Shown here: one piece after another, positions 4,708 through 57,698 of the stretch
How positions within the stretch are numbered: position 1 is the stretch's first letter
Layout of the letters: each line of letters starts with the position of its first letter
Source: Candidatus Velesiimonas alkalicola
GTDB lineage: Bacteria; Omnitrophota; Gorgyraeia; Velesiimonadales; Velesiimonadaceae
NCBI GenBank assembly: GCA_013626165.1
Contig: NDHX01000004.1
Coordinates: 565-64,564, forward strand
Reading direction: 5' to 3'
DNA length: 64,000 nt
Translations under genes and position numbers: made by a program
The notes under the pieces: model-generated
The model's database searches: none
Told to the model about the DNA's origin: nothing
What the model saw: the letters and a program-made list of their open reading frames with translations, nothing else

Positions 4708-5011
4708 TTTTCCTCCTTATTTTTAAAACAAGGTGCAATCCGAAAAGATTTTTTTAAGTTAAGATATGTATTTCCCTTCTCGTTTCTCACCTTGAGAATT
4801 AACATGTGCTATATAGTAATCGTTGCATTTCCGACAACCTTTGACTGTTCAAGAAATCCCTCACCTCCTTCTTGTCATAGATTAAGGATGTCTGCAACGG
4901 TTAAGCCCGAAACACAAGATAGACACAGACTATCTGAATATCTCATTATACAACATATTTCAGTTTTGTCAAGTACTTTTTTTTAATTTTTTTTTACCCT
5001 GTTAAATTGAT

Positions 5012-5098
5012 ATCAGTGCACCAGGGCACCAGGGCACCAGTGCACCAAAGCATCAGTGCACAGGGCACCAGAGCACCAGGGCACCAGAGCACCAGATA
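5012..5098. repeat. Tandem octamer repeat (GCACCAGR)x~11, longest copy of a dispersed intergenic family
   Basis: Direct reading: gcaccagg gcaccagg gcaccagt gcaccaaa gcatcagt gcacaggg caccagag ... Intergenic. Followed by GC-rich palindromic sequence to ~5240. Confidence 0.8.
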
Positions 5099-5283
5099 TG
5101 ATATGAAAGAAGGGGAGATTTTCGCCCCCTTTTATAAAGGTGGACCCTTCCCCTCCCCCCCCATTTATAAAGATGGCGGGGCGCCCATCCAAAGGATGGG
5201 TCGGGGGATTATGTTTTCCCCACCCAAAGGGCGCTTGCCTTAAACCCTTGATATCTTGACGCCTATTTTTTCCCTATTCCCTT

Positions 5284-6438
5284 CTATAAAGAAGCAAATT
5301 CTTTTATAAGACCTGTTCCTATTATTGACCTCTGTATCTGATTTGTGCCTTCGTATATCTGTGTAATCTTTGCATCCCTCATAAACTTTTCAACAGGGCA
5401 GTCCCTCATATACCCATAACCACCAAATATCTGAACTGCATCTGTTGTAACCTTCATTGCTGTATCTGAGGCAAAAAGTTTTGCCATTGCAGACTCTTTG
5501 CTTACCCTGGTATTTCCCGAATCAACCATTCTTGCCACTGAATAAACAAGAGCTCTTGCTGCTTCAACCTGTGTTGCCATATCTGCAAGCATAAACTGTA
5601 TGCCCTGAAATGATATTATTGGTTTTCCAAACTGAACCCTTTTTCTTGCATATTCAACCGCAAGGTCAAGTGCCCCTTGTGCAATACCAACAGATTGTGA
5701 TGCAACACCCGGGCGTGATATATCAAGAGTTTTCATTGCAACAACAAAACCAAGCCCCTCTTTTCCAAGAATATTTTCTTTTGGAACCTCGCAGTCAGTA
5801 AAAACAAGTTCTTTTGTTGCAGAAGCCCTTATACCTAACTTTTTTTCCTTTTTACCAAATGTAAATCCCGGTGTTCCTTTTTCAACTATAAATACACTTG
5901 CACCTCTTGCTCCTTTGTTTTTATCCGTCATTGCAATTATTATATAGGTTTCTGCTTCCCCACCGTTTGTAATCCACTGTTTTGTTCCGTTTAATATATA
6001 ATAATCCCCCTGGTTTTTTGCGGTTGTTTGAATACCTGATATATCAGAACCTGCGCTTGCCTCTGTTAGTCCGAATGCAGCTATTTTTTTACCCGATGCA
6101 AGGTCTGGAAGATACTTTTGTTTTTGAACATCATTCCCGTAAAGTATTATAGGATATGTTCCCAACGCACTTGCTGCATAACATACTGCAATACCCCCGC
6201 ATGCACAGGAAAGCTCTTCTGTGACAAGACACAGATCCAGAACCCCTCCGCCTGTTCCCCCATATTTTTCCTCTATATACACACCAAATAAGTCGCTCTC
6301 TGAAAGAACCTTCATTATCTGCCAGGGAAATTCCTCTGTTTCATCATAGTATGCAGAAACAGGCTGTATCTTTTCCTTTGCAATCTTTCTTGCAAGTTCT
6401 TTTGCCATTATCTGTTGTTCACTTAAAAAGTAGTCCAT
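5284..6438 (-). CDS. Acyl-CoA dehydrogenase (short-chain/butyryl-CoA type)
   Basis: Full-length ACAD architecture. YGGTG..., the catalytic region and IYEGTNQIQR near the C-terminus. Confidence 0.9.
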   Translation of the reverse strand: MDYFLSEQQIMAKELARKIAKEKIQPVSAYYDETEEFPWQIMKVLSESDLFGVYIEEKYGGTGGGVLDLCLVTEELSCACGGIAVCYAASALGTYPIILYGNDVQKQKYLPDLASGKKIAAFGLTEASAGSDISGIQTTAKNQGDYYILNGTKQWITNGGEAETYIIIAMTDKNKGARGASVFIVEKGTPGFTFGKKEKKLGIRASATKELVFTDCEVPKENILGKEGLGFVVAMKTLDISRPGVASQSVGIAQGALDLAVEYARKRVQFGKPIISFQGIQFMLADMATQVEAARALVYSVARMVDSGNTRVSKESAMAKLFASDTAMKVTTDAVQIFGGYGYMRDCPVEKFMRDAKITQIYEGTNQIQRSIIGTGLIKEFASL

Positions 6439-6486
6439 CTAACCTCTCGGTTGCCAGAGCACCAGGCCACCGGAACACCAGTTTGT

Positions 6487-23408: not shown

Positions 23409-23609
23409 AAAACAATTAACTGGTAATAGATACAAAATAAAGGGATGATGTGTTAGTTAAAAAATAAGAGTGGACTGTTTTTGCAGGTATAAAATCATTA
23501 CCCTGTTCTGAAAATTCAATTGTAGGGCAAATATGACGCTCTTTTTTCCGTTATTCCCACCCCCCACCCTTTAAGAAATTTTTTCGGCAAGGGTCTTTCA
23601 AAAATTTTT

Positions 23610-23638
23610 CTTGACTTTTCTTTCTTATTTCTGTATAA
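23610..23638 (+). promoter_or_regulatory. Consensus sigma70-type promoter driving the R-M island
   Basis: TTGACT – 17 nt – TATAAT, a perfect -35/-10 with ideal spacing, ~55 nt upstream of the HTH gene start. Confidence 0.5.
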
Positions 23639-23691
23639 TAATTAAGACAAAAGAGGATAGAAATGGATTTTAACATACAATTTTTATAAAT

Positions 23692-23895
23692 ATGAAAAAG
23701 AACAAAGCACCTGAAATATTGACTACTAAACAACTGGCTGAATATCTACAAATGGATAAAGCAACTGTCTATCGCCTCGCAAGAAAAAGAAAAATCCCTG
23801 CCATCAAAATCTTGGGTCAGTGGCGGTTTAAAAAAGATGTAATTGATAATTGGCTTGCTGAAGGAAGTTTAAAAAATTTTGATAAAATGGAGTGA
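23692..23895 (+). CDS. Excisionase/MerR-type helix-turn-helix DNA-binding protein
   Basis: 67 aa. LTTKQLAEYLQMDKATVYRLARKRKIPAIKILGQWRF is the HTH_17 / excisionase-family signature. Its stop overlaps the mod start. Confidence 0.7.
   Translation: MKKNKAPEILTTKQLAEYLQMDKATVYRLARKRKIPAIKILGQWRFKKDVIDNWLAEGSLKNFDKME
23698..23823. repeat. Left copy of a ~125-bp inverted repeat (5' part of the HTH gene)
   Basis: Near-identical, apart from a few mismatches, to the reverse complement of 29100–29225. Confidence 0.85.
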
Positions 23896-25822
23896 AAAGA
23901 TGAGTGAAAAAATTAATAAGTCGGTGAAGATAGATATTAAGGAAGGATTAAATAAAATTTATCCTGAAGTATTTGAGGATGGTAAAGTTAATTTTGAGAA
24001 GTTGAAGACATTGTTAAGTGGCGAAATCATTGAAAAGGAAGATGATAGGTTTTATTTTAACTGGGCTGGGAAAAGCAATTTATTTAAACTTATCCAAGCA
24101 CCTGCTTATGGAACTTTAAAACCAGATAAAGAGAAGTCAGTTGATTTTGATAGGACAGAAAATGTTGTAATTGTTGGTGAAAATTTAGAGACACTTAAAC
24201 TTTTGCTTAAACCATATTTTGGTAAAGTCAAGATGATTTATATTGACCCGCCTTATAACACAGGTAAAGATTTTATTTATCGTGATAATTTTAAGGAACC
24301 ATTAAAAGACTACTTAGAAAAAACAGGACAGATTGACAGTGAAGGGCAAAAACTCACTACGAATACAGAAGCAAGTGGTAGATACCATTCTGACTGGCTC
24401 AATTTTATCTATCCGAGATTATTTTTAGCAAGAAGTTTATTAAGAGATGATGGAGTTATTTTTATCTCAATTGATGACCACGAGGTTCACAACTTACGAA
24501 AAATTATTGATGAGATTTTTGGGGAGGAGAATGTAGAAATGATGATTTGGTATAAAATTCCTGAAACAGGAACAGCAGGGCAAGGGAAAATGAAAATGAC
24601 AACACGATTTAGAGTGGACAATGAATATATTTTAGTGGGATATAAAAATATAAATAAGATTCTATTTGGTAAGCCTTTAAGAATTAAGGAATTCAAAAAT
24701 GAATATGCTAATCCTGATAATGACCTTCGGGGGAATTGGATAAGTTGTGAATTATGTAAGTCTGAAGAAAAATCAAACCCTAAAGGTAAAAATTATTACA
24801 CTGTTACAACTCCAAAAGGGATAAATATAACGAGACAGTGGCATATAACAGAAGAAGAATTTAAACAATTGGATGGAGATAATAGAATATATTGGGGTGA
24901 CGGTACAATTATACCAAGATTGAAAAGATTTTTAAATGAACCACAGCCTGTAACTCCTTCTTCCTTAATTAAAAATATTTCCCAGACACAAGGTAATAGA
25001 GAATTGAAAAATTTATTCAACGGTAAATTAACATATGACAATCCCAAACCTCTTGAACTTATATCATGGTTGATTGAAATTTCTACTTCCTCAGATTCCC
25101 TCATCCTCGACTTCTTCGCCGGTTCAGGCACAACAGGACACGCTGTCTGGAACTTAAACAAAGAAGATGGAGGCAACAGAAAATTTATTCTTGTTCAACT
25201 TGATGAAGAAGTTTTAGATGAAGAAATTAAAAAACAGTTTCCAACTGTTGCAGATATCTGTATTGAAAGATTAAGGAGAGTATCAGAAAGGTATAAGAAA
25301 GAGAACACCCCGTCCCTGCGGGACACCCCTCTGAAAGAGGGGAATTCCCCTTCTATGAAGGGGTGGCAGGCGAAGCCTGACGGGGTAGTGTTTGGGTTCA
25401 AGGTCTTCAAACTTGATAAATCAAACTTCAATCTTAAAGATGAATTTGAATTTGACCCAAGTGAAAATAAAGAAGAGTTAAAAAAGAGATATTTAGAGTG
25501 GCTTGGTATGTTTGTTGAACAACCATTAGTTCCTAACTGGCAAAAGATTGATGTTATTTATGAAGTAATGCTGAAAGAAGGATTAAATCTAAACTCTAAA
25601 ATTGAAAAGATAAAGATTAAAAACGACGAATTTTATTATGTTAAGGATGAAGAACAAAACTTAGATTTTTATATCTCTCTTAAAGACAAATTTACTCCTG
25701 AGACCATAGAAGAAATAAGAACTTCAAAATATAAAGGAAAAATGTTTGTCTTTATAGACAAAGCATTAACAGATAACAACAAAATAAATTTGAGTGCTTT
25801 TGTGAGATTAAAGGTGATATAA
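23879..25822 (+). CDS. mod: Type III R-M system methyltransferase (Mod), N6-adenine
   Basis: DPPY motif IV; FAGSGTTG SAM-binding motif; ~640 aa; upstream of res. Carries a ~95-bp GC-rich palindromic in-frame segment (25305–25400). Confidence 0.85.
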   Translation: MIKWSEKMSEKINKSVKIDIKEGLNKIYPEVFEDGKVNFEKLKTLLSGEIIEKEDDRFYFNWAGKSNLFKLIQAPAYGTLKPDKEKSVDFDRTENVVIVGENLETLKLLLKPYFGKVKMIYIDPPYNTGKDFIYRDNFKEPLKDYLEKTGQIDSEGQKLTTNTEASGRYHSDWLNFIYPRLFLARSLLRDDGVIFISIDDHEVHNLRKIIDEIFGEENVEMMIWYKIPETGTAGQGKMKMTTRFRVDNEYILVGYKNINKILFGKPLRIKEFKNEYANPDNDLRGNWISCELCKSEEKSNPKGKNYYTVTTPKGINITRQWHITEEEFKQLDGDNRIYWGDGTIIPRLKRFLNEPQPVTPSSLIKNISQTQGNRELKNLFNGKLTYDNPKPLELISWLIEISTSSDSLILDFFAGSGTTGHAVWNLNKEDGGNRKFILVQLDEEVLDEEIKKQFPTVADICIERLRRVSERYKKENTPSLRDTPLKEGNSPSMKGWQAKPDGVVFGFKVFKLDKSNFNLKDEFEFDPSENKEELKKRYLEWLGMFVEQPLVPNWQKIDVIYEVMLKEGLNLNSKIEKIKIKNDEFYYVKDEEQNLDFYISLKDKFTPETIEEIRTSKYKGKMFVFIDKALTDNNKINLSAFVRLKVI

Positions 25823-25842
25823 ACAATGGAGATGATGTAGAT

Positions 25843-26133
25843 ATGAAGAATTTAGAAGAATTAAAAAGAATTATTAACCTGCATAAAAGAGAACTTGAAG
25901 AAAAATATAATGTAAAAAATATAGCCATATTTGGTTCTTATGTGAGAAACGAACAAGGTGCAGAAAGTGATATAGATATACTGGTTGAATTTAAGAAACC
26001 AGTAGGTTTACTTTTCATCCATCTTGCAGATTATCTGGAAGAAATCTTAGGCATTAAAGTTGACCTGTTAACACCCGAGGCTATAAAACCAAATCGCCGA
26101 AGATATGTAATGGAGGAATTGATCTATGTCTAA
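25843..26133 (+). CDS. Nucleotidyltransferase (MNT-type antitoxin)
   Basis: IAIFGSYVRNEQGAESDIDILVEF is the minimal NTase GS..DxD motif. Confidence 0.85.
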   Translation: MKNLEELKRIINLHKRELEEKYNVKNIAIFGSYVRNEQGAESDIDILVEFKKPVGLLFIHLADYLEEILGIKVDLLTPEAIKPNRRRYVMEELIYV

Positions 26134-26473
26134 AAGGGACTGGAAACTTTTTCTTGAAGATGTTTTGGAATCAATGGGTTTAATAGAGGGATATGTGAAA
26201 GATATGAATTTTGATAATTTCAAAAGCGACAGAAAAACAATTGACGCGGTTATCAGAAACCTTGAGATAATAGGAGAAGCCTCAAAAAATATTCCGCAAA
26301 ATATGAGAGATGCTTACAAGGATATTGATTGGAAAGGCATTATTGGCTTAAGAAATAGAATATCTCATGAGTATTTTGGTATAGATTTTTCTGTTATATG
26401 GAACATTATTAAACTTGAACTTCCTGCATTTAAAGAAAAATTTCAAAGGATACAGAAAGAAATTGAGCCATAA
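26126..26473 (+). CDS. HEPN (DUF86-type) toxin
   Basis: GLRNRISHEY carries the Rx4HxY HEPN motif. An 8-bp overlap with the upstream MNT gene gives a classic HEPN/MNT pair. Confidence 0.8.
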   Translation: MSKRDWKLFLEDVLESMGLIEGYVKDMNFDNFKSDRKTIDAVIRNLEIIGEASKNIPQNMRDAYKDIDWKGIIGLRNRISHEYFGIDFSVIWNIIKLELPAFKEKFQRIQKEIEP

Positions 26474-26474
26474 A

Positions 26475-29063
26475 ATGTTAAAGTTAAAATTTGATTCAAA
26501 ATTAGATTTCCAGATTGATGCAATAAATTCTGTTGTTGATTTATTTAAAGGTCAGAGGGAGAAGTCATTTGTTTATACATTCCAGATTATTCCTAATTTA
26601 ATAGATATACCTTCAGAAAAAATCCTTGAAAATCTACAAGAGACTCAAAAGAAAAATGGACTTCCATTATCTAACGCAGACGATTTGAAAGAACCTTATA
26701 ATTTTACTGTTGAAATGGAGACGGGAACTGGAAAGACCTATGTATATCTAAGGACAATCTTAGAATTAAATCAGAAATACGGATGGACAAAGTTCATTAT
26801 TGTAGTTCCATCGGTTGCTATAAAAGAAGGAGTTTTAAAAACTTTGGATATTACGAAAGAACATTTTAAACAGTTGTGTGAGAATTTACCTTATACCTAT
26901 TTTTCTTATAAATCGGACAATCTCGTAATGGTTCGGATGTTTGGTCAAGATACCAACCTTCAGGTTATGGTTATTACAAGAGATGCCTTTAATAAGGATA
27001 TAAATATAATCCATAATATTCACGATAAAATGGGAGATAAACCAATTGAGATTATCAAAGAGACAAAACCCATCGTTATTCTTGACGAGCCTCAAAAGAT
27101 GGGCGGAGAAGCAACTTTGTGGGGTTTATCTGAGTTGAATCCACTTTTTGTATTACGCTACTCTGCAACCCACAGAGATATTTATAATCTTGTTTATAAA
27201 TTAACTCCTTATGATGCGTATAATTTCGGATTAGTTAAAAAAATAGAAGTCCTGTCTATTACAGAAGAAGGAGACCCAAGCAGTAAAAAAATTATTTTAG
27301 AAAGAATAGAATCAACATCAAGTGGCTTAAGAGCAAAAGTCAAAGTTTTTGCTAATACAAAAGACGGTATAAAGTTTAAGATGATAACGATTAAACACGG
27401 TGATGATCTATCAAATAAGACAGATAATTCCTATTATAATGGCTTTATCACAAGTGAAATAAACAAAGGTGCAGGGTATATCTCTTTTCCTAATGGTGTG
27501 AAAATTTACGAAGGAAAATCTTCAATAGATGAAGATGAGATAATTCGTTTTATGGTAAGGGAAACGGTAAGGGAGCATTTAGACAAAAAGAAACAATTAA
27601 ATCCCAAAGGGATTAAAGTGTTAAGTCTGTTTTTTCTAAATAGAGTTGATGATTATCTATTGGAAGATGGGATTGTCCGACGAATTTTTGAAGAAGAGTT
27701 TAACAAATTTATTGAGAATCAATATTCCCCTCTTGTAGAGGGGTGTCCCGAAGGGACGGGGTGTTTTGATGTAAAGAAGGTTCATAGTGGTTATTTTTCA
27801 AAGATGAAAAGGGATAAAAGTATTGAAGAAGATGAGTCAGCATACGATTTGATTATGAAGGATAAAGAGAGATTGCTTTCGTTGGGGGAACCGGTAGAGT
27901 TTATTTTTTCCCATTCTGCTTTGAGAGAGGGCTGGGATAATCCGAATGTATTTAATATTTGCACTCTTGCTTACTCTTCTTCAGAAATTAAAAAGAGACA
28001 GGAAATCGGGAGAGGTTTAAGATTACCAGTTGACCAGAATGGGGATAGAATTCAGGATAGAGATATAAACTTATTGACTGTGATTACAAATGAAAGTTAT
28101 AGGGAATATTTAGAAAGATTACAGATAGAATACCGAGAAGAAGCAGGCGTTGAAGCACCACCTGTTGAAGAAAGAAGGCAAAGGATAAAAATAAAGCGTA
28201 AGGATGAGGTAATTCAAGGAGATTTATTTAAAAATTTATGGAATAGAGTATCTCCGAAAGCAAAGTATATTGTAAATATAGATGGTGGTAAATTCACAGC
28301 GCAATGTATCAAGGATTTACAAAAAATTGAAATAAAAAAGCCAGAAATAAGCATTAAAAAAGTTAGAGTAGATAAAATAAGCTATGAAGACATTGAAGAG
28401 GAATTTATTAGAAAAGCATCGGAAGAAACGGAGATAACCAAAGTCCTTAATCTTATACCCTGCATTGAAAGAGAAACCAGTTTAACTAAAAATACAATAT
28501 TTAAGATATTAGAAGGTTGTAATAATCTTCATCTTTTATTTGTGAATCCTCAAAAATATAAAGATATGGTCATAGAAGTTATTAAAGAGTGTAAAAAACA
28601 ATCTGAAGTTGAGGATATTAAATATATCAATTTGGAAGAAAGTTATGATGTTGGTCTTTTAAGGGAGGAAGTGGCGAGTTATGGTAAATATGTATTAAAA
28701 GTACAAAAATCAATTTATGATGGGATAATTAAAGAATCAAATATAGAAGAAGAGTTTGCTAAGGCACTTAATAAAGACTCCCGGATAAAATTATTCATAA
28801 AACTGCCTGATTGGTATTCAATAGAAACGCCTGCAGGGAATTACACACCTGACTGGGCGATTGTAATAGAAAAAGTTCAGAATGGTGTAACTTCCGAAAA
28901 AATTTACTTTGTAGTTGAAACCAAAGGAACTAATAATATTTATGAATTGAAATCCGATGAAAAAATTAAGATAAGAAGTGCTAAAAAGAGGTTTGAACTT
29001 ATAAGAGACTCAAAATTTGTGGCACCTGTTAAGGATTTTGATAGTTTTGAGAAGGAGTGGTAA
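26475..29063 (+). CDS. res: Type III restriction enzyme Res subunit (SF2 helicase-nuclease)
   Basis: ETGTGKT Walker A; VILDEPQ motif II; GWDNPNVF motif VI. ~860 aa. Start taken at MLKLKF, directly after the HEPN stop. In-frame GC-rich palindrome at 27726–27765. Confidence 0.85.
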   Translation: MLKLKFDSKLDFQIDAINSVVDLFKGQREKSFVYTFQIIPNLIDIPSEKILENLQETQKKNGLPLSNADDLKEPYNFTVEMETGTGKTYVYLRTILELNQKYGWTKFIIVVPSVAIKEGVLKTLDITKEHFKQLCENLPYTYFSYKSDNLVMVRMFGQDTNLQVMVITRDAFNKDINIIHNIHDKMGDKPIEIIKETKPIVILDEPQKMGGEATLWGLSELNPLFVLRYSATHRDIYNLVYKLTPYDAYNFGLVKKIEVLSITEEGDPSSKKIILERIESTSSGLRAKVKVFANTKDGIKFKMITIKHGDDLSNKTDNSYYNGFITSEINKGAGYISFPNGVKIYEGKSSIDEDEIIRFMVRETVREHLDKKKQLNPKGIKVLSLFFLNRVDDYLLEDGIVRRIFEEEFNKFIENQYSPLVEGCPEGTGCFDVKKVHSGYFSKMKRDKSIEEDESAYDLIMKDKERLLSLGEPVEFIFSHSALREGWDNPNVFNICTLAYSSSEIKKRQEIGRGLRLPVDQNGDRIQDRDINLLTVITNESYREYLERLQIEYREEAGVEAPPVEERRQRIKIKRKDEVIQGDLFKNLWNRVSPKAKYIVNIDGGKFTAQCIKDLQKIEIKKPEISIKKVRVDKISYEDIEEEFIRKASEETEITKVLNLIPCIERETSLTKNTIFKILEGCNNLHLLFVNPQKYKDMVIEVIKECKKQSEVEDIKYINLEESYDVGLLREEVASYGKYVLKVQKSIYDGIIKESNIEEEFAKALNKDSRIKLFIKLPDWYSIETPAGNYTPDWAIVIEKVQNGVTSEKIYFVVETKGTNNIYELKSDEKIKIRSAKKRFELIRDSKFVAPVKDFDSFEKEW

Positions 29064-29099
29064 GAGAAACTTTAAATTACCTGATTGTTATAAAAACAG

Positions 29100-29225
29100 C
29101 CACTGACCCAAGATTTTGATGGCAGGGATTTTTCTTTTTCTTGCGAGGCGATAGACAGTTGCCTCATCCATTTGTAGATATTCAGCCATTTGTTTAGTAG
29201 TCAATATTTCAGATGCTTTGTTCTT
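29100..29225. repeat. Right (inverted, degenerate) copy of the HTH-gene 5' segment
   Basis: Reverse complement matches 23698–23823 apart from a few mismatches. Lacks the ATG and diverges after ...GQW, so it is a non-functional partial copy. Confidence 0.85.
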
Positions 29226-29241
29226 TTTTTTATTTGTTGTT

Positions 29242-30201
29242 TTATTTTTCCTTCACTGTTATATATGATTGAGCCAAAAGTTCCCCTATAAATTCTGAAA
29301 ACCTGTCTTGTATTTTTTCTTTTTCTAAAGTCATTCTTATTTTGTCCTGTGCTTCTTCAAATAATATGGCATAGCCCGGACGGTGATCTTCTACTTTAAA
29401 GATATAATAATTAGAATTGATCTTGATAGGATTTGATGTCTGTTCCTGTTTAAGCGAAAAAACAATGTCTTCTATTTCTTTCAGCATCTTTCCTTTTTCA
29501 ATCCATCCCACACTTCCGCCTTCTTTTGCAAACGCATCTTTTGAATATTTTTTTGCAACCTCTGAAAAATCCTCTCCCTGCCTTAAAAGGCTTGATACTT
29601 CTTCTGCTGTTTTATTGAAAGAGTCCTCTGTCTGATTTTCTTCTTTTCTCAGTGTAATTTTTCTTAAATAAACTTCTTCATTTTTTTTAAAAAATTCCGG
29701 ATGCTGGTCATAAAAGTCTTTTATCTCTTTGGGTGTAACAATGGCTTTACCCACAACTTCTTTATCAAATATTATTCTTATTGCAGTCTGTTCTTTTAGT
29801 CTTTTTTTAAACCTTTTTTTCGTCCATCCCTGTGCTTTAAGGTTTTTCTCAAACTCTTCTGTGCCCCCTGCTTCTGATTCAAACATTTTAATCTTACCTT
29901 CAATGTGCGCATCCTGAACCTTTATATTCTGTCTTTGAGCCTCCTGATACATCATCTTTTCTTGTATAAGTTGTCTTATCACATTTTGTCTTAACTCTGC
30001 GAGCTTTTTTTCTAATTCTTCGCCCTGCACTTCCGGTTCCTGCAGGAAAAAAGGCAAGAGAGCCTCCTGTATATCGGATTCCATTATAATATCACTGTTA
30101 ACGATAGCAATTATTGCATCAAAATTACCCCGCTCAGGTGCAGCCGCACAATTCAGGCCTGCGAGCAAGATTATTTCTATCAAGAAAAGTAATTTTTTCA
30201 C
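29242..30201 (-). CDS. SurA-like periplasmic chaperone / PpiC-type peptidyl-prolyl isomerase
   Basis: Signal peptide. SurA_N-like helical region. C-terminal parvulin domain (GGSVGWIEKGKMLKEIEDIVFSL...). Confidence 0.7.
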   Translation of the reverse strand: MKKLLFLIEIILLAGLNCAAAPERGNFDAIIAIVNSDIIMESDIQEALLPFFLQEPEVQGEELEKKLAELRQNVIRQLIQEKMMYQEAQRQNIKVQDAHIEGKIKMFESEAGGTEEFEKNLKAQGWTKKRFKKRLKEQTAIRIIFDKEVVGKAIVTPKEIKDFYDQHPEFFKKNEEVYLRKITLRKEENQTEDSFNKTAEEVSSLLRQGEDFSEVAKKYSKDAFAKEGGSVGWIEKGKMLKEIEDIVFSLKQEQTSNPIKINSNYYIFKVEDHRPGYAILFEEAQDKIRMTLEKEKIQDRFSEFIGELLAQSYITVKEK

Positions 30202-32116
30202 TATCTGTTATTTCTCCTTTTTCTTTTACCTGTTCTATAGCATCTTTCAATAATCTACAGTAAAGGTCAAAGCCAACCGCACCTATATGTCCGCTTTGTT
30301 CTATCCCAAGAAGATTTCCGGCACCTCTTATCTGCAGGTCTTCCATAGCAACACGAAAACCAGAGCCGAGCTCTGTCCATTTTTCCATACAAGAAAGCCT
30401 CTCCTTCGCATCTGATGTAAGGATGCTCCTGTCCTGCACTAAAAGATAGCAGGTGGCTGGGATATCTGACCTTCCTACTCTTCCTCTTAATTGATAAAGG
30501 TCTGCAAGTCCGAACATATCTGCATTATCTATAAATATCGTATTTGCATTTGGTATGTCAAGCCCGGACTCTATGATACAGGTGCAAACAAGGACACTGA
30601 TATTTTTTTGTAAAAATTGTTTCATAACATCTTCCAGAACCCGCCCTGGCATCTGTCCGTGGGCAGATGCAATTTTTACACCCGGAACAATAGAAGAAAT
30701 TTTTTTAGCAACCCCTTCTATTGTTTCAACCCTGTTATGCACAAAAAATACCTGTCCGCCTCTTTTAATTTCTTTTAATATGCCTTCTCTTACAATGTCG
30801 CCTGAAAACCGGCAAACTGTTGTTTTTACAGGGATACGAGAAAGAGGCGGTGTATTGATAATAGACATATCCCTTACACCCGTAAGGCTCATATACAGTG
30901 TTCGTGGTATGGGTGTTGCGGTAAGCGTAAGAACATCTACAAGAAGTCTTAACCTTTTAAACCTTTCCTTATGCCTTACACCGAATCTTTGCTCCTCATC
31001 AATTATAACAAGCCCTAAATCTTTAAAACCCATATCTGATGAAAGAAGCCTGTGTGTTCCTATGACAATATCGGTTTTGCCTTCTGATGCTGCCAATACT
31101 GTTGCCTTCTGTTGATGCGGTGTCACAAACCTTGAAAGCATACTTATTTCAACAGGGAAATTCTTGAACCTCTGCTTGAATATAAGGCAATGCTGTTCTG
31201 CAAGAAGTGTTGTAGGGGTAAGTATTGCAACCTGTTTATTGCTCATCACAGCCTTAAATGCTGCGCGAAGTGCTACTTCTGTTTTACCATAACCAACATC
31301 TCCGCAGATAAGCCTGTCCATCGGCTTTTCCATTTCCATATCTTTTTTTGTTTCAAGCCACGACCTTATCTGGTCGGGCGTTTCTGTGTATGGAAACCCC
31401 GATTCAAACTCTTCCTGCCACAGACCATCTTTTGAAAATGCAAATCCTTTTTTTGAAATCCTTACTGCCTGAAGCATCACAAGTCCAGAGGCAAGAGACT
31501 GAACAGCTCTGTATGCTTTTTGTTTTGTCTTCTCCCAGAATTTTGTTCCCAATCTACTTAAGTTCGGAGCTCTTTTATCAATGCCGACATATCTTCTTAC
31601 CATTGAAATATCTTCAATTGGAACATAGAGCCTGTTTTTATCCCTGTATTCAACAACAAGATAATTCTTTAATTCTTCTTTTTCAGGACATTTAAGTTTT
31701 TTCCTCCCTAAATATTTTCCTATGCCATGCTGAAAATGGACAACAAAATCCCCCTCTTCAAAATCTGTAAATTTACTTATGTTTTCAGATTCTATGAAGG
31801 ACTTAAACTGCAAAGAACTAAGACTTTTTATCCCTGCAGGGACAATGATAACAACATTCAATTCTTCAATTATGTTGCCGTCTTTATGATTAAAAGCCGT
31901 GAGCCTTTCTATCCTGTTATCAAAAAGTTCAAACCTTACAGGATGTATTCTATCAAAGGCAAATATATCAATTATATATCCTCTGTGCGAAAAATCCCCG
32001 GGCAATTCAACACAATCTTTCCACCTATATCCTAAAATCACAAAACTGTTTAAGATATCTTCAAAATTAAATATCTGGTCCTTTTGAAATCTTAAAACTT
32101 CTGGAAACTCCGCCAT
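30134..32116 (-). CDS. mfd: Transcription-repair coupling factor Mfd, short form lacking the UvrB-homology N-terminal module and the D7 C-terminus
   Basis: CarD/TRCF RNAP-interacting domain (DFVVHFQHGIGKYLG). SF2 translocase motifs: GDVGYGKT, DEEQRFG, TATPIPRT, LRGRVGR. Only 660 aa against ~1100 aa for canonical Mfd. Confidence 0.8.
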   Translation of the reverse strand: MAEFPEVLRFQKDQIFNFEDILNSFVILGYRWKDCVELPGDFSHRGYIIDIFAFDRIHPVRFELFDNRIERLTAFNHKDGNIIEELNVVIIVPAGIKSLSSLQFKSFIESENISKFTDFEEGDFVVHFQHGIGKYLGRKKLKCPEKEELKNYLVVEYRDKNRLYVPIEDISMVRRYVGIDKRAPNLSRLGTKFWEKTKQKAYRAVQSLASGLVMLQAVRISKKGFAFSKDGLWQEEFESGFPYTETPDQIRSWLETKKDMEMEKPMDRLICGDVGYGKTEVALRAAFKAVMSNKQVAILTPTTLLAEQHCLIFKQRFKNFPVEISMLSRFVTPHQQKATVLAASEGKTDIVIGTHRLLSSDMGFKDLGLVIIDEEQRFGVRHKERFKRLRLLVDVLTLTATPIPRTLYMSLTGVRDMSIINTPPLSRIPVKTTVCRFSGDIVREGILKEIKRGGQVFFVHNRVETIEGVAKKISSIVPGVKIASAHGQMPGRVLEDVMKQFLQKNISVLVCTCIIESGLDIPNANTIFIDNADMFGLADLYQLRGRVGRSDIPATCYLLVQDRSILTSDAKERLSCMEKWTELGSGFRVAMEDLQIRGAGNLLGIEQSGHIGAVGFDLYCRLLKDAIEQVKEKGEITDSEKITFLDRNNLARRPELCGCT

Positions 32117-32149
32117 CCTCAGCCTTATCCTCTATCTTTACCTCTTACG

Positions 32150-32200
32150 CCAGTCACCAGGGCACCAGAGCACCAGAGCACCAGAGCACCAGGGCACCTG
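32150..32200. repeat. GCACCAGR octamer tandem repeat
   Basis: cagtcaccagggcaccagagcaccagagcaccagagcaccagggcacc, between the mfd start and the apbE end. Confidence 0.8.
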
Positions 32201-32211
32201 TTGCCCGTTGC

Positions 32212-33126
32212 CTATCTTATTATCCTAACCTCTACACCCTTTCTTGGGATAAACTCTATATCTTCTGAGATTAAAACATATGTTTTCCCGTGCTGTTTTA
32301 CTACACATATAATAGACACATCTTTTAAGTATTTAAGTCCTGAAAGTCCTGCTATTATGGGTACCTTTGCAAGTGCCTGTGCTTTTGCGCAATTATCTGT
32401 AATGATAGAAGAACTTATAACATCAGTGTTTGCAGATTCACCACTACTGGTATCTATGATGTGTTCTCTTAAATAATTCCCTGATGTTGCAATGCTGGAA
32501 GATAGGGAAAGTGTTCCTAATATTTTTTTATCGTCAATGGGATCCATTAAACCTATGTTCCACGGTTTTCCATTCCTGCCTTTTCCGACCACTCTTATAT
32601 CTCCTCCGCCATCTATAAGTGCGCTTTTTATATCTAATTTTTTAAGAACATCCACAGCACGGTCTATTGCATAACCTTTTGCAATCCCGCCGAGATCAAC
32701 TTTCACATCTTTGTCCTTAAAAAATACCGTCCTGTTTTGTTTGTCTAATATTATGTTTTTCCACCCATCCTTTCTTTTCAAAGATGTTGCTGTAATGTCA
32801 AATATGCCGTCAGTGCCTTTTGAAAAGTTTTGTGACATTTCAATTATTTTAAAAAGATCTTCACATACTTCCACCGGAAAGTTAGCACCGTCTCTGTTAA
32901 GTTTAGAGACACAACTTTCTGAGTCAAACCAGTTCATTATTTTTTCAATTCTTTTTATTTCTTCAAATGCAGACGCAAAGGCTTTTTGAGCAGTTTGCTG
33001 TTCTTCAATAATTGTTATTGAAACAGTTGTCCCTAACAAAACCCTTGTCTGCGTATAGGGATGTACAAACACAGGGAATGATAAACAACAAGCAGTAGAT
33101 AGAAAAAAAAATAAAAAACTTTTCAT
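32212..33126 (-). CDS. apbE: FAD:protein FMN transferase (ApbE family)
   Basis: DLGGIAKGYAID and LIDGGGDI motifs. N-terminal signal sequence/lipoprotein. Confidence 0.85.
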   Translation of the reverse strand: MKSFLFFFLSTACCLSFPVFVHPYTQTRVLLGTTVSITIIEEQQTAQKAFASAFEEIKRIEKIMNWFDSESCVSKLNRDGANFPVEVCEDLFKIIEMSQNFSKGTDGIFDITATSLKRKDGWKNIILDKQNRTVFFKDKDVKVDLGGIAKGYAIDRAVDVLKKLDIKSALIDGGGDIRVVGKGRNGKPWNIGLMDPIDDKKILGTLSLSSSIATSGNYLREHIIDTSSGESANTDVISSSIITDNCAKAQALAKVPIIAGLSGLKYLKDVSIICVVKQHGKTYVLISEDIEFIPRKGVEVRIIR

Positions 33127-34222: not shown

Positions 34223-34637
34223 AGTAATCTCTTTCTAATTTAATGTAGGAGCGACTCGGGGGTCGGATCTCCCAACCCAATCTTTCATAGTCTTCTTACA
34301 GAAACAGGAGATGTCATTATGAGGGCGAAGCCAGAAGTGACACTGTAATGTGTCATCTCTTCGCGGAAGTTCACCCTTGAGCAAAAGGAATGGTTCAGAA
34401 CGGCGCCTGAAAGAGCAATTACCCCTGCTTGAATCTATCAGGGGCTGAAGGAACTCATTAAAATGAATCTTTGCAGACTCTTTTAAGTAACACATATTCC
34501 CCTTCCCAGGCATCAGAGCACCAGGGCACCAGTTGCCACTTGCCCTTTTAAGTTGCTTCCCCATATTCCAAATCTTGTAATACTAAAATCATATTTTACG
34601 GGGTCATCGGCACATAATTTTATAAAGTTTTTCAAAG

Positions 34638-37697: not shown

Positions 37698-37844
37698 CTT
37701 CTTGTCTCCTTTTTCTGAATTTATTCAAACGGCTTCTTGGAAAATGTAACGATTGAAGAATTGCCCCCTGAATCTCCCATCCATTCATCATGAAAAGTGT
37801 CAATTTTCACCTACGTCCCTCAGGGCAAAAATAATTTTTACTTA

Positions 37845-37918
37845 AAACAACCGTCCCTTTTTCCGTTTTCATTTCTCAAAAAGTAGCCCGTCCCCTTTTC
37901 TATACCATTTTCCTTTTC
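37845..37918. repeat. Copy of the hicBA-associated upstream repeat, orphan (no TA pair downstream)
   Basis: aaccgtccctttttccgttttcatttctcaaaaagtagcccgtccccttttctata matches the repeats at 38440–38580 and 39150–39270. Confidence 0.75.
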
Positions 37919-37951
37919 TATACCCTTTTCTATATACTGTGGAGTGAAATG

Positions 37952-38137
37952 TTATGGCTTTGGTATTTCAAGGTCTTTACATATTTTCGTGACAAGATAT
38001 TTATCAATTTCTCTGTGACGGGGAACGGTGCTCGCCTTCTTTTTTCTGCGATTTACATATACCGTATGATTTGCACCTTCTCGTAGGAATTCGCATCCGT
38101 TTAACTCAAGATGTCGGATTACATCTTTTCGCTTCAA
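37952..38137 (-). CDS. hicA: HicA-family toxin (mRNA interferase)
   Basis: 61 aa. ...LELNGCEFLREGANHTVY...TVPRH.EI is the HicA/YcfA fold signature. Overlaps the hicB stop by 4 bp. Confidence 0.75.
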   Translation of the reverse strand: MKRKDVIRHLELNGCEFLREGANHTVYVNRRKKKASTVPRHREIDKYLVTKICKDLEIPKP

Positions 38138-38358
38138 ACCGTTACTGCTCCGAAGTCTTCTTTTATAATTTCGAAACCCTTAAGTTCTTCTTCAAAAAGT
38201 TGTCTGTTGGCGTCCAAAATAAGCTGGACCGCTTCAATTAAATTTTTTCTTGCTTCTTCAAGTGTTTTGCCTTGAGTATTCGCTCCTGGAAGTTCTTCAA
38301 TAAAGCCAATATATCCGTATGGCGATTTTTGAAATATTGCCGTTAACTTTTCTTTCAT
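38134..38358 (-). CDS. hicB: HicB-family antitoxin
   Basis: 74 aa. YGYIGFIEELPGANTQGKTLEEARKNLIEAVQL is the HicB/UPF0150 RNase-H-like fold. Confidence 0.75.
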   Translation of the reverse strand: MKEKLTAIFQKSPYGYIGFIEELPGANTQGKTLEEARKNLIEAVQLILDANRQLFEEELKGFEIIKEDFGAVTV

Positions 38359-38439
38359 TTTTATTTTTCTCCTTTTTATCTATATTATGCCACAACGGCC
38401 AATCTCGCAGGGAGGGGTGCAGTTTCTCGCGATCCCTTA

Positions 38440-38580
38440 AGTCGCTTAAAGAGAACGGGTGTATTTATTATTCCCATTTTCTTGTTTGCATCTTTTTCAT
38501 TTAATTAGAACCGTCCCCTTTTCCGTTTTCATTTCTCAAAAAGTAGCCTGTCCCCTTTTCTATATGGAATGTCTTGTTTG
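38440..38580. repeat. ~110-bp conserved repeat upstream of hicB (copy 1), with internal 12-mer direct repeats
   Basis: tatttattattcccattttcttgtttgcatctttttcatttaattagaaccgtccccttttccgttttcatttctcaaaaagtagcctgtccccttttcta. On the minus strand AAAAGGGGACRG occurs twice ~35 bp apart. Confidence 0.8.
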
Positions 38581-38583
38581 GGC

Positions 38584-38772
38584 TTACTTTATTTGTTTTA
38601 TGCCAAGGTCCTTGCATATCTTTCTTGCAAGGTTATCGTTGATTTCTGTATGCCGCGGCACAGATGAACGTTTGTTTTGTTCTGGATTCCACCACCATGA
38701 GTGGCGACTTCCTTCTCTGATAAATTCACATCCTTGCGACCGTAGATGCTTCAGCAGATCATTGCGTTTCAT
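38584..38772 (-). CDS. hicA: HicA-family toxin (second copy)
   Basis: 62 aa; LRSQGCEFIREGSRHS...SVPRHTEI; paralogous to 37952–38137. Confidence 0.75.
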   Translation of the reverse strand: MKRNDLLKHLRSQGCEFIREGSRHSWWWNPEQNKRSSVPRHTEINDNLARKICKDLGIKQIK

Positions 38773-38981
38773 ATAGCAATTTTTTCTTCTACATATCCAG
38801 TTCCTATCGCAGAGAGCGCGTCTTGACGGTTAAATTCAAGTGCCTCTTTCAGAGTGGCTCGGAGGCTTTCCATTAACTCTTCACGAGTATGTTCTTGACA
38901 GTTTACCCCTGGAATTTCCCCTATCCATCCAATCCACCAATCACCCTCTTGCCTTACTATAGCCGTATATTCTGTATCCAT
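38769..38981 (-). CDS. hicB: HicB-family antitoxin (second copy)
   Basis: 70 aa; EGDWWIGWIGEIPGVNCQEHTREELMESLRATLKEALE; 4-bp overlap with the downstream hicA. Confidence 0.7.
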   Translation of the reverse strand: MDTEYTAIVRQEGDWWIGWIGEIPGVNCQEHTREELMESLRATLKEALEFNRQDALSAIGTGYVEEKIAI

Positions 38982-39149
38982 AATTTGCCCCCTTTCAGAT
39001 AATGTGATTATACCTTAAAATCCACTAATTCAGGCAGCTATATTTATTGACCTAACGATGAAACTAAAATAAAATTAAAGGGGCCTGTTGTTCTCGCTCA
39101 TTAATTCGGTAACTTTTTCAAGTTTATCAAAAGGTGTCATGGGGACTCT

Positions 39150-39270
39150 TAATGGACGATTCTATTTATTATTCACATTTTCTTGTTTGAATCATTTTCA
39201 TTTAATTAGAACCGTCCCCTTTTCCGTTTTCATTTCTCAAAAAGTAGCCTGTCCCCTTTTCTACTTTTCT
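39150..39270. repeat. ~110-bp conserved repeat upstream of hicB (copy 2)
   Basis: Near-identical to 38440–38580 (…cacattttcttgtttgaatcattttcatttaattagaaccgtccccttttccgttttcatttctcaaaaagtagcctgtccccttttcta). Confidence 0.8.
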
Positions 39271-45560: not shown

Positions 45561-48500
45561 TTATCCACAACTGTAGATTACCGAGCATTCTACTTCTGGA
45601 TATAGATTGTCTATATTTTTTTGAATTTCTATTGTCTTTTTCAGGGCGGTGGCGATTTGGCAGTAGTGTTTTATGTCATTGAGGGAAAGGGTTTTCCCTT
45701 TTCTGTCTTTGAGCCATTTGTTGAGCACTTGATAACCACCGATTTGGTATTCCCAAACATCTTTTTCTATTCCCTCAAAACATTGGTCCTTGTTGATGTA
45801 GACCTTTTTTTCTTTTTCACTGTATTTCGGATTCTCCATTCTTCCACTGCCTCTTTCTGGAAACTGGGCAAGGGGATCATCTAACGCTATTGATTTCAAG
45901 AGATGCAAACCAACAAGGACTTTTCCATATCTTTCCATTTTGATGAACAAATCATAATCCTTCGTAAAAGGTATCCTCGGAAAGTCTACTTTTAAAAATT
46001 CAGCGTATTTCTTGCGGTAGACATTGGAATAGAGAGTGCCGTAAATATAAAAGAAAATTTCTTCGGGAGAAGGCTCCTGGCTATAAACTTGAGATAATTT
46101 TTCCACTAATTCAGGGTTGAGGTTGGGTTTCTTTTCGCCTGATTCTAAATGGCTGAACAGACCTTTCTTATCAGTATTGGGGTAGAGGTAGAGAGGACAA
46201 ATAGTATTGTTTGCGAAAGCACTTTCAAAAACACAACTTTCAACAATAAGATCTGACACAAACGTGTAAGAAAATGGTGTCATCTTATTCTGCCTTTTAA
46301 TAAGGAGGCCCAAATTCTCCTGTATCATATGCTGCATTACTTCTTTGCGTGAGCGTTCTATAACAGCATCATGATAGAAAATCCATTGTTTATCAAAAGG
46401 GCGGTAGAGAATTTTTGTAATTGCCTGCTCCCAATCGTCATCTTTTGCTAATTCTCTTCTAACTTCAGCAAACTTCCAGCCTCTTGTATCTTTTAATTTA
46501 AAAGTCTGTTTAACAAGTTCATCGGGCATTGATAGGTTTCTGAACATCGCTATCCGTCTTTTTAAGACATCTTTATCAAAATCAATTACAAATTTATCTC
46601 TTGCCGTAACAATGCCAACACAATTAACAGGAAAAATATCCGTTACTTTCCAGTATTTCTCATAAATTTCTCTCCCTTTCTCTTCTCGTGGGATAAAGAA
46701 GTAATAAGGACTTGTTGGGCTTAGCTTTTTCCATTGGGTCGTTTTTATATCATTCCTCAAAAGCCAATCGCTTTTCTTTTCTCTCAATCCCCAAATCTCT
46801 GAATGATGGACCTTACAGTCAAATCCCCCCTTACCCCCCTTTTCTAAAGGGGGGATGGGGGGCTTACTCTTTATAAACAAAGCAATAGCCACTCCTTGCT
46901 GAATATCAAATACATTATTATCTTTAGAGCCATCGGGGCATTTCTCTTTTTTCAAACTGTTACCATGTAAATCTAAAATATAAATTTCGTTAAAGCTCTT
47001 CATCAAAGACTGCCGCATACCTCTGAATGTGGGATTATCAAGATAACTATGATTGGTGATAAATCCTAAGACTCCTTCACCTGCCTGGTCTATCTTCCAC
47101 TGGGCAAAACGAATAAACTTAACATAATCGTCCTGAAGCCATTTTGGATTCTTCTCGCCAAGTGGTTTGCTGTCAACCTGAAAGTAAGCCTTAATCTCTT
47201 TTGATATCCAATTACCGATGTTAGAGGAATGACCTGAATACGGCGGATTGCCGAGGATTACCAGTATAGGCTGTTCTTTTTTAACTTTCCCGGCTAAATG
47301 GGATTCCTCGGAAAGAGAAGCCATGCCGGGAATCTCGGCCTGGGCAAGCTCCTCCATCTCTAAGGTATTAGTGAGATAGAGTTTGACCCTATCGTCCCTC
47401 TGGAGTCTATAACCAAGTCCTTCTAATAGAAAAGACATCTTTAAATGGCCAACTGCATAGGGCGCCATCATTAGTTCAAAGGCATAGAAATTTTTAAGGA
47501 TATGTTCCTTGATAAATTTTTCTTTACCCCCCTCACCATATTTGGAGACAAATTCTTCTACGGCTAATTTGGATGCCTCAGCCAAAAAGGTAAGCGTGCC
47601 GGCGGCCGGGTCTAAAACAGTAACCGAATCACTGGCAAATCCATCTGCTCTATTAAAATGTTCCTTCAAAATATCTTGTAAGGAACGGGCAATGTAGGAG
47701 ACCACAGGTTCGGGAGTATAATAGACACCCCTCTTTTCCCTCGTTTGTGGGTCATATTCAGCTAAAAAAGTTTCATAGAAGTGGACAATGGGGTCTTTGC
47801 CCTTGCCTTCATGGAAATACTGATGAAGGATATTTTTAACATCAGTAACGGCTAAGACTTCGGAAATATCGTCTATAATCCATTCCATCTGCGGGGGCAA
47901 CTTGCCGCGAGAAACAAACTCAAAAACATCTCGCAATATTCCGATAGTGCCGGGGATATTATCATAAGCCAATTTGCGGTTAAATCCATTTTGTGAGCGA
48001 GTGCGAGCCGCAAAAAGACCATAGGTGATAGTCTGAGCGTATAGATCGGCAAAATCTTCCCTGGTAAGCCCCTTGATGAGATATTCCTGAAATGCCTTAT
48101 AGAATCCCAGGATAAAACCTTTGCCTTTTTCTTCCTCTTCTTTTAATTCTTCTATGATGACTTGGTCTTTCAAGAAACGGGTTCTTTTGGCCAGTTCTAT
48201 AGCCAAAGACTCTGCGGTATAGGTTTGAGGAAGAGAGAAAGAGAAAAATTTGTTTAATAAGCCCAGGAAATCTTTTTCCTTCTCTACAGGGGGAATTGTT
48301 TTTAATGTGTGGATAATAAAAGGCCGGGCAATAAGAACTCTATCAATTAATTGCCCATTACGGTACAAGCGAAATTCAAAAAAGTTGGTCAGGATAAGAT
48401 TGGGAAAAGTTTTAAGGTATCTCTTAAGCTGCTCAGTGTCTTCTATAATATCAAGATTCTTCTCTATGGGCCTTTTTGCTTCTATGTATCCGACAATGTT

Positions 48501-57624: not shown

Positions 57625-57680
57625 AGGCGACTGAGCGACAGGCGACTGGTGCACTGGTGCACTGGTGCTCTGGTGCTCTA
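57625..57680. repeat. GCACCAG-family octamer repeat in reverse orientation (CTGGTGCW)
   Basis: gcgactggtgcactggtgcactggtgctctggtgctct, between short nfeD and floA on a plus-strand operon. Confidence 0.8.
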
Positions 57681-57698
57681 ATAATATAGGAGGAAAAT

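Follow-up and report, generated by a model that had tools for sequence, protein, structure and literature searches.

Why should a restriction-modification (R-M) cassette carry, beyond its last gene, an inverted piece of its own first gene? This question is raised by a locus in the window, which is the whole stretch of 64,000 nt of contig NDHX01000004.1 (GCA_013626165.1, Candidatus Velesiimonas alkalicola) analysed here and whose positions serve as coordinates throughout. A Type III R-M unit extends there from ~23553 to 29235 in the order promoter, leader open reading frame (ORF), a helix-turn-helix (HTH) gene of the HTH_17 family, mod, MNT, HepT and res, between gatC/gatA on one side and surA-like/mfd on the other, as assigned by Pfam. 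The beginning of the HTH gene recurs in reverse orientation behind res, so that the two copies form the arms of an inverted repeat. We propose, with a probability of about 0.5, that the right arm is a pseudogene relic of one old recombination in the conserved core of the HTH gene, carried with the cassette and not a dedicated element. The comparison involves three related cassettes, L014 (GCA_975272155.1), L015 (a JGI 3300031463 contig) and L028 (an Ignavibacterium metagenome-assembled genome), and the following features of the window.

23688..23829, + strand: left arm, the HTH gene from -4 to +138 (codons 1-46), defined by repeat search and shuffle counts.
29094..29235, - strand: right arm, an inverted pseudo-copy of HTH codons 1-46, 7 nt from the stop codon of the surA-like gene.
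29064..29093, no strand: spacer of 30 nt between the res stop and the right arm, kept together with the junction in L015 and L028 according to alignments (the BLAST match of L028 reaches 29117).

The arms are 142 nt long, 95% complementary (94.9%, 7 mismatches) and 5264 nt apart, with a longest mismatch-free tract of 64 nt, and they are the longest repeat of any kind within the window. The original prediction, made from the sequence alone, had described a repeat of about 125 bp (23698-23823 and 29100-29225); the repeat is real, and its length had been underestimated. Probes of 21 and 64 nt taken from the arm occur exactly twice each in the window versus none expected from shuffled sequences, tblastn detects no third HTH copy in the window, and an Rfam scan of the whole window gave no hit. 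A search for the repeat elsewhere, which had been advised, thus ends with two copies only in these 64 kb. Among metagenome contigs a 23-mer pattern from the arm matches only two contigs from The Cedars and L015, and the arm and junction patterns have no match in viral contigs. The Cedars contigs come from metagenomes of the GPS1 serpentinizing spring taken in 2011 (BBPF) and 2012 (BBPG) and are near-identical to the window. Independent assemblies among them span either arm: L001 and L002 lead from mreB past gatA and across the left arm into mod, and L008, a 2011 scaffold, leads from mod via res and the right arm to the surA-like gene and mfd. Therefore the repeat is not an assembly artefact. 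A Logan contig covering mfd and surA (L029) ends at 29133, inside the right arm; this end was considered as a sign of inversion and is attributed instead to an assembly break induced by a repeat longer than the assembler k-mer.

As had been claimed, the right copy is not a working gene. At the position of the start codon the window has AAA instead of ATG, L015 has ATG and P0140 a codon for Ile. The similarity of the window copy to the HTH protein stops after ...KILGQW, followed by L-F-L-stop. The copy had been thought to diverge after the HTH region; it actually ends at residue 46, within the Pfam HTH_17 match (residues 10-58), and lacks the last helix. Analyzing the substitutions in the right copies it is possible to see mostly amino-acid replacements, namely P7S, L15M and R45L in the window and P7T, E8A, L15M, A30S and A37G in L015. 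Compared with that of the window, the functional HTH gene of L014 shows five synonymous substitutions and a single replacement across the HTH core. The substitutions of the right arms are thus pseudogene-like, and at the sequence level these arms decay as pseudogenes do.

Does this fragment belong to the locus or to the cassette? Among the 17 clusters of HTH homologs compared in the protein collection, the only truncated one is P0010, from L015, in which a glyoxalase gene abutting the right end is followed by a truncated HTH copy ending GQWRFL-stop, by the matching 30-nt spacer and by the convergent 3' end of res. L015 is 94% identical to window positions 28984-29228, the homology ends at the outer edge of the arm and the DNA beyond is unrelated; an extension of the L015 right arm into a remnant of leader or promoter is not significant (247 of 500 shuffles scored as well). 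In L028 the 3' side of res shows the spacer and a vestige of 26 nt that aligns to HTH nt 112-138 (score 32, with none of 2000 shuffles as good) and breaks at HTH nt 138, the breakpoint of the window arm, before the 3' end of a tRNA-Asn gene. Five related cassettes without the HTH gene (L023-L027, with a Res 88% identical to that of the window) also lack the junction, and their homology to the window covers only 23933-29050. The inner junction is identical at three different loci, which argues for a right arm that belongs to the cassette and for a fragment that arose once, before the cassette spread. This rules out the possibility, raised in the original prediction, that a second cassette had been deleted here and had left the fragment as its local footprint.

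The position of the break can be related to the history of the HTH gene itself. The window and L028 are 68.8% identical over HTH nt 1-138, 92.4% over nt 139-204 and 86% in mod, so that identity jumps exactly at the inner edge of the arm, and all four combinations of N- and C-terminal types are present among the HTH homologs. Because of this jump at nt 138/139 and of the four combinations, the conserved GQWRFKKDVID core, inside which the arm breakpoint lies, is, as judged from the alignments, a recombination hot spot. Furthermore, each window arm is only ~68-69% like the HTH gene of L028, versus 95% between the arms; the L028 vestige matches its own HTH gene at 22 of 26 positions and that of the window at 19 of 24. 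A shared junction, together with arms that are alike but unlike the L028 HTH gene, indicates concerted evolution, i.e. gene conversion, and in the three cassettes compared the arms are probably kept similar by occasional conversion from the functional copy. The tufA/tufB genes of Salmonella are inverted duplicates kept alike by gene conversion (PMC5485169). As in that pair, the inverted copies are closer to each other than to their orthologues, and RecA-dependent non-reciprocal exchange is the likely cause; unlike it, one copy is here a non-functional fragment of 142 nt and the conversion is deduced from three cassettes.

Thus, we propose that a single old recombination, with its break at HTH nt 138 within the GQWRFKKDVID stretch, the best conserved part of the gene, would have left an inverted, start-less and truncated copy at the right border of the cassette. 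This copy would have been carried along in cassette transfers, decaying like a pseudogene, and the functional HTH copy would re-homogenise the relic now and then by gene conversion. As a side effect, the arms could recombine homologously, with inversion of the 5.3-kb body between them; no inverted assembly was seen. The single origin, the gene conversion and the absence of a dedicated function are the steps that we infer, and several points weigh against them. Only three right ends (window, L015 and L028) were compared, two of which, the window and L015, are close relatives, and the L028 vestige is short (26 nt). A 64-nt perfect tract among 7 mismatches is not significant as a conversion tract (P ~0.12 by our own estimate). 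A functionless fragment of 142 nt should be lost fast, yet it is of full length in two lineages, and the co-variation of the arms with the HTH type could equally mean selection for complementarity, either for RNA pairing or as a recombination substrate. Finally, an inversion at low frequency would escape a comparison made at the assembly level.

The proposal requires that the cassette moves between genomes. On comparative grounds the cassette is laterally acquired and mobile, because it is found in other genomic contexts, its Res homologs are widespread and its G+C is low, in agreement with the inserted mobile defence cassette originally envisaged. The nucleotide identity in other contexts is 82-94% (L014, L015). 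In L014 a LarC-family (Ni_insertion) gene precedes the matching cassette, whose promoter, leader, HTH, mod and res are 82-88% identical to those of the window and whose homology to the window begins at ~23553-23558, and L028 has the order HTH-mod-YhcG-res at ~84% identity. The order is HTH-mod-DarT/Macro-res in L016, and in L020 and L021 a tRNA-Asn gene and a large serine recombinase gene precede HTH-mod; the upstream region of L020 is significantly similar to that of the window (0 of 500 shuffles as good). More than 100 Res homologs at 65-88% identity come from many phyla, those at 75-88% from Ignavibacteria, Omnitrophica, Atribacteria and the archaeal Aenigmatarchaeota and Micrarchaeota. The G+C is 0.28-0.34 in the cassette versus 0.37-0.43 in most of the flanking genes.

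Some members of the family may ride on integrative elements targeted to tRNA-Asn. In L020 (1932-3609) the 3' end of tRNA-Asn(GTT) overlaps the end of the large serine recombinase gene adjoining the cassette, and in L028 the tRNA-Asn 3' end that adjoins the vestigial right arm lies at 6172-6246. No remnants of the L020 recombinase or of its 73-aa neighbour were found in the window (tblastn with the recombinase). The plasmid searches yielded no more than remote Type III systems (~69% identity across 13% of the query) and HTH_17 genes that are unrelated, and nothing useful came from viral contigs searched for loci related to Res and to HTH.

Could the arms themselves be the ends of the mobile unit? 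A non-autonomous transposon, with the arms as terminal inverted repeats for a transposase acting in trans, would agree with the coincidence of the right arm with the right border of the shared DNA, and R-M systems of all types flanked by long imperfect inverted repeats are known (PMC2853133), a part of them having target duplications. The left border of the unit lies elsewhere, as the comparisons with L014 and L020 demonstrate:

23553..23691, + strand: 5' control module, outside the left arm, with promoter and leader mini-ORF, defined by homology with L014 and L020.

The conserved unit starts at ~23553, about 135 nt outside the left arm, and includes promoter and leader, so that the left arm is internal and only the right arm is a terminus. 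At the true cassette ends there is neither a terminal inverted repeat nor a target duplication, and no significant direct repeat exists between the outer flanks. The arms occur in two copies only in the window, no recombinase or transposase Pfam domain was found there among ORFs of ≥150 aa, and the right arm, a piece of a gene, undergoes pseudogene-like decay. We regard such a transposon as highly improbable, and the picture of a cassette bracketed by inverted repeats in the transposon sense, as originally drawn, does not hold. R-M units of all types with long (>60 bp) imperfect flanking inverted repeats, some of them within genes of the system, have been catalogued (Furuta, Abe and Kobayashi 2010, PMC2853133). 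The present case resembles these in being a complete R-M unit without its own mobility gene, placed between housekeeping genes and with a long, imperfect and unit-specific inverted repeat. It differs from them in that only the right arm is at a border, the left arm being internal, promoter and leader lying outside and no target duplication being present, and in that the arms reproduce a part of the HTH gene that leads the operon itself, with a breakpoint shared with a distant cassette. The present case is thus part of the phenomenon of R-M units flanked by inverted repeats but lacks the transposon-like features.

A second possible role is that of an invertible switch, for which a segment bounded by inverted repeats (142 nt, 95%) is indeed present. 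RecA-type or trans-acting recombination between the 142-bp arms would flip the 5.3-kb body, so that the Type III system would phase-vary by ON/OFF or by promoter swap. After the flip, transcription from the cassette promoter would yield nothing but a truncated HTH of 47 aa and antisense res, and the operon, with a start-less HTH, would lie downstream of mfd/surA-like and be expressed only via read-through. The flip would join promoter, leader, ATG and arm to CTGTTTTTATAACAATCAGG, and the arm on the surA side to CGGTTTAAAAAAGATG; the predicted junctions are 23687 followed by the reverse complement of 29093 (...GGTCAGTGGC-TGTTTTTATAACAATCAGG) and the surA-side arm followed by 23830 (...GGTCAGTGGC-GGTTTAAAAAAGATG). 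The architecture is that of a switch, as the segment excludes the promoter and the start codon and has one arm inside a gene; the 64-nt perfect tract could support RecA-dependent exchange, and the apparent co-evolution of the arms implies a physical exchange between them. In addition, the lack of a terminator between the surA-like gene and the arm makes read-through plausible, the neighbouring gene on the outer side reads into the arm in sense in each of the three contexts, and inversion-driven R-M variation is known for Type I hsdS (PMC4948785), as are intragenic invertons (PMC10028968). Yet the orientation is the same in the window, BBPF-2011, BBPG-2012 and the Logan contig, with contigs running through both arms, in an assembly-level view that would miss minority variants. 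The chimeric 47-aa ORF expected from the inverted state is absent among the 17 HTH clusters and their members, and no invertase is found in the cassette or in the window among ORFs of ≥150 aa. The arm of L028 is reduced to 26 nt, which indicates that it is dispensable, and the start codon of the right arm is not conserved either way. We consider a switch of this kind unlikely, and the invertible cassette of the original prediction, including the inverted contigs that it had proposed to look for, finds no counterpart in the assemblies. Type III systems are not known to vary by such inversion. The arrangement resembles the Type I hsdS shufflons (SpnD39III of S. pneumoniae, PMC4948785) and invertons (PMC10028968) in having one arm in the 5' part of an expressed gene, a silent start-less partner downstream and the promoter outside; unlike them, it has no adjacent recombinase and one orientation in assemblies, and its inversion would disconnect the operon rather than exchange specificity domains.

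The arms might also act at the level of RNA, and here the structure of the control module is of importance. It contains a sigma-70-type promoter, TTGACT-17-TATAAT, at 23611-23639 (11 of 12 consensus matches in a promoter scan), and a leader mini-ORF of 8 codons, MDFNIQFL*, at 23663-23689, with the Shine-Dalgarno sequence AAGAGGA and a stop 2 nt ahead of the HTH ATG, which has no Shine-Dalgarno sequence of its own. In L014 the hexamers are identical to those of the window, and the leader ORF, MDFNIQFLHI*, overlaps the HTH gene by ATGA. This suggests, from the arrangement of the reading frames, that HTH is translated by termination-reinitiation from the leader ORF. In the 2011 population (L002 ~9388, corresponding to window position 23639) the -10 hexamer is TATAAC instead of TATAAT. 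Over its last ~140 nt the operon mRNA would be antisense to its own beginning, namely to the HTH start codon and codons 1-46, and pairing in cis or in trans would block re-initiation at HTH after the leader ORF or create a target for RNase III, providing a feedback once transcription has reached the end of res. There is no terminator-like site or stable local structure on either strand in 29050-29250. The arm starts 4 nt upstream of the HTH start codon, where the leader ORF, apparently needed for the translation of HTH, has its stop; moreover, three cassettes share the conserved junction and spacer, and the arms co-vary with the resident HTH type. The proposal is purely inferential, however; the seven mismatches of the arms are not wobble-compatible, L028 keeps only 26 nt that do not cover the start codon, and the substitutions of the right arm show no sign of constraint to match. 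We find this control quite unlikely.

A further role would be that of homology handles, in which the HTH 5' segment and its inverted copy anchor swaps of the body, i.e. of alleles of the target recognition domain (TRD) or of guest genes, between cassettes led by HTH. The family is modular, with TRD swaps, a guest slot and shuffling of HTH N- and C-terminal parts, and in the comparison of the window with L014 conservation is higher in the arm region than in the body (93.5% vs 82-88%). However, inverted anchors do not support a simple double-crossover replacement against a single resident HTH gene, and the arm, as coding sequence, should be better conserved in any case. With L028 the relation to the window is the reverse, the arms being less conserved there than the body. 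A function as handles is in our opinion distinctly improbable.

The modularity is nevertheless clear in the body. The TRD of Mod in the window (24533-25108, residues ~205-400) and that of the 2012 Cedars contig L001 (10562-11166) are unrelated in sequence (≤32% amino acid identity) between flanks that are 95-100% identical, and the contigs of the 2011 Cedars assembly break at 24399 and 25127, around the TRD. This suggests, at the assembly level, co-existing or alternating mod specificity alleles in one population. The slot between the mod stop and the res start holds guest genes, MNT and HepT in the window (25823-26474), a YhcG/DUF1016 nuclease in L028 (2391-3480) and DarT-Macro in L016 (2855-4300); it is empty in L014 (~12060) and in L023 (..ATATAAAATG..), with mod abutting res. 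Ahead of res, both the window and L028 have regenerated the stop-start junction TAAAATG.

Taken together, a functional inverted HTH fragment, be it a flip switch independent of a recombinase that alternates the whole operon between the cassette's own HTH-controlled promoter and host read-through, or a 3'-terminal antisense segment gating translation of the regulator, is rather unlikely. Should either be true, Type III R-M would have a kind of regulation for which no description exists in these systems.

The gene content, the flanks and the promoter given in the original prediction were borne out by Pfam, NCBIfam, PADLOC and the promoter scan, and the genes of the cassette are the following:

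23692..23895, + strand: HTH_17 leader gene, 67 aa, excisionase-type and MAD1-like, Pfam HTH_17 1.2e-16, corresponding to MBA2123787.1 (bacterium Unc6).
23900..25822, + strand: mod, Type III N6/N4 methyltransferase, Pfam N6_N4_Mtase 1.9e-37, PADLOC MTase_III 8.6e-168.
25843..26133, + strand: MNT, MntA-type nucleotidyltransferase and predicted antitoxin, Pfam NTP_transf_2 7e-19, NCBIfam MntA below cut-off.
26126..26473, + strand: HepT, predicted HEPN RNase toxin, Pfam HepT-like 2.8e-30, 8-nt overlap with MNT.
26475..29063, + strand: res, Type III, SF2 helicase ResIII 9.6e-13 and C-terminal RE_endonuc 3.4e-30 (Pfam), PADLOC REase_III 7.8e-228.
25305..25392, + strand: GC-rich multi-hairpin element, an in-frame insert in mod, with a 42-nt inverted-repeat partner at 27724-27765 in res.

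As in a Type III R-M system, mod with a variable central TRD lies upstream of res on the same strand and Res combines helicase and endonuclease; its score against NCBIfam PRK15483 is 310 bits, below the equivalog cut-off of 564. The translations show the motif GS-X10-DID (GSYVRNEQGAESDID) in MNT and RNRISH (R-X4-H) in HepT, and both proteins are above the Pfam gathering scores and below the NCBIfam equivalog cut-offs. Adjacent, overlapping and with both motifs, the two genes have the gene-level characters of a predicted MntA/HepT (type VII, MNT-HEPN) pair. The HTH_17 protein is presumed to be the regulator of the operon. It is above the cut-off of TIGR01764, PADLOC calls it mad1, and it reaches 64.3 bits against the NCBIfam MAD1 model, below the cut-off of 80. 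A small HTH protein comes first, as in the methylation-based defence operons led by MAD1 (MADS) or by C-protein R-M controllers, and the window HTH is nearest to the MAD1 models; unlike MADS, the score is below cut-off (64.3 vs 80 bits) and the other mad genes are absent, the rest of the operon being classed as Type III Mod/Res and MNT/HepT, so that the operon does not qualify as MADS. C proteins are of the XRE type versus HTH_17 (excisionase type) here, where regulation is predicted.

The hairpin element consists of a closing stem and four hairpins (minimum free energy -46.3 kcal/mol, z -2.8), and its 42-nt partial copy in res lies in the opposite orientation as a 93% inverted repeat, with two copies only in the 64 kb. 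It is present in the Cedars contigs and absent from L014, L023-27 and L028, and it looks like a small palindromic mobile element tolerated in coding sequence.

Next to the cassette, the SurA-like protein has a next-best homolog of only 33% identity in a protein search and ≤29% in a scan of genome contigs; by this measure the lineage of the host, bacterium Unc6, is isolated in the collections searched. The mfd ORF (30134-32116, - strand) encodes 660 aa only, with the UvrB-interaction domain at its beginning, and shares 68 nt with the start of the surA-like gene; the usual Mfd has ~1100 aa and is longer than this ORF. A second defence-type gene at 45561-48698 (- strand, 1045 aa) combines N6_Mtase, Eco57I and Type_ISP_C, i.e. 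a Type IIG/ISP-like enzyme. Intergenic tandem arrays of the 8-nt unit (GCACCAGR)n are located at five sites (4995-5116, 6444-6486, 32139-32221, 34503-34545 and 57635-57683), and the L008 alignment breaks, probably at scaffold gaps, at or near two of them (32147-32194, and 34266-34320, ~180 nt ahead of 34503), which points to arrays that vary in length or are hard to assemble. Apparent insertions of ~120-130 nt in L002 and L008 were considered as miniature inverted-repeat transposable elements and rejected, the inspected L002 case proving to be a scaffold gap filled with N. A 108-nt unit occurs in three direct copies, ~660-700 nt apart and 67-94% identical, at 37795-39263 near MBG/POTRA-domain genes, and a 128-nt direct repeat pair lies at the window start (276-646); both sets probably represent repeated protein domains.

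For R-M units flanked by inverted repeats the present cassette provides a traceable example, in which the repeat is a fragment of the unit's own leader gene with its break at a hot spot, carried across hosts and co-varying with the resident gene. It also shows a widely transferred Type III family to be modular, with swappable HTH N-modules and Mod specificity regions and a guest slot between mod and res. If the repeat drives inversion or RNA pairing it would represent a new control mode for a Type III system; if not, it is a well-documented recombination relic.

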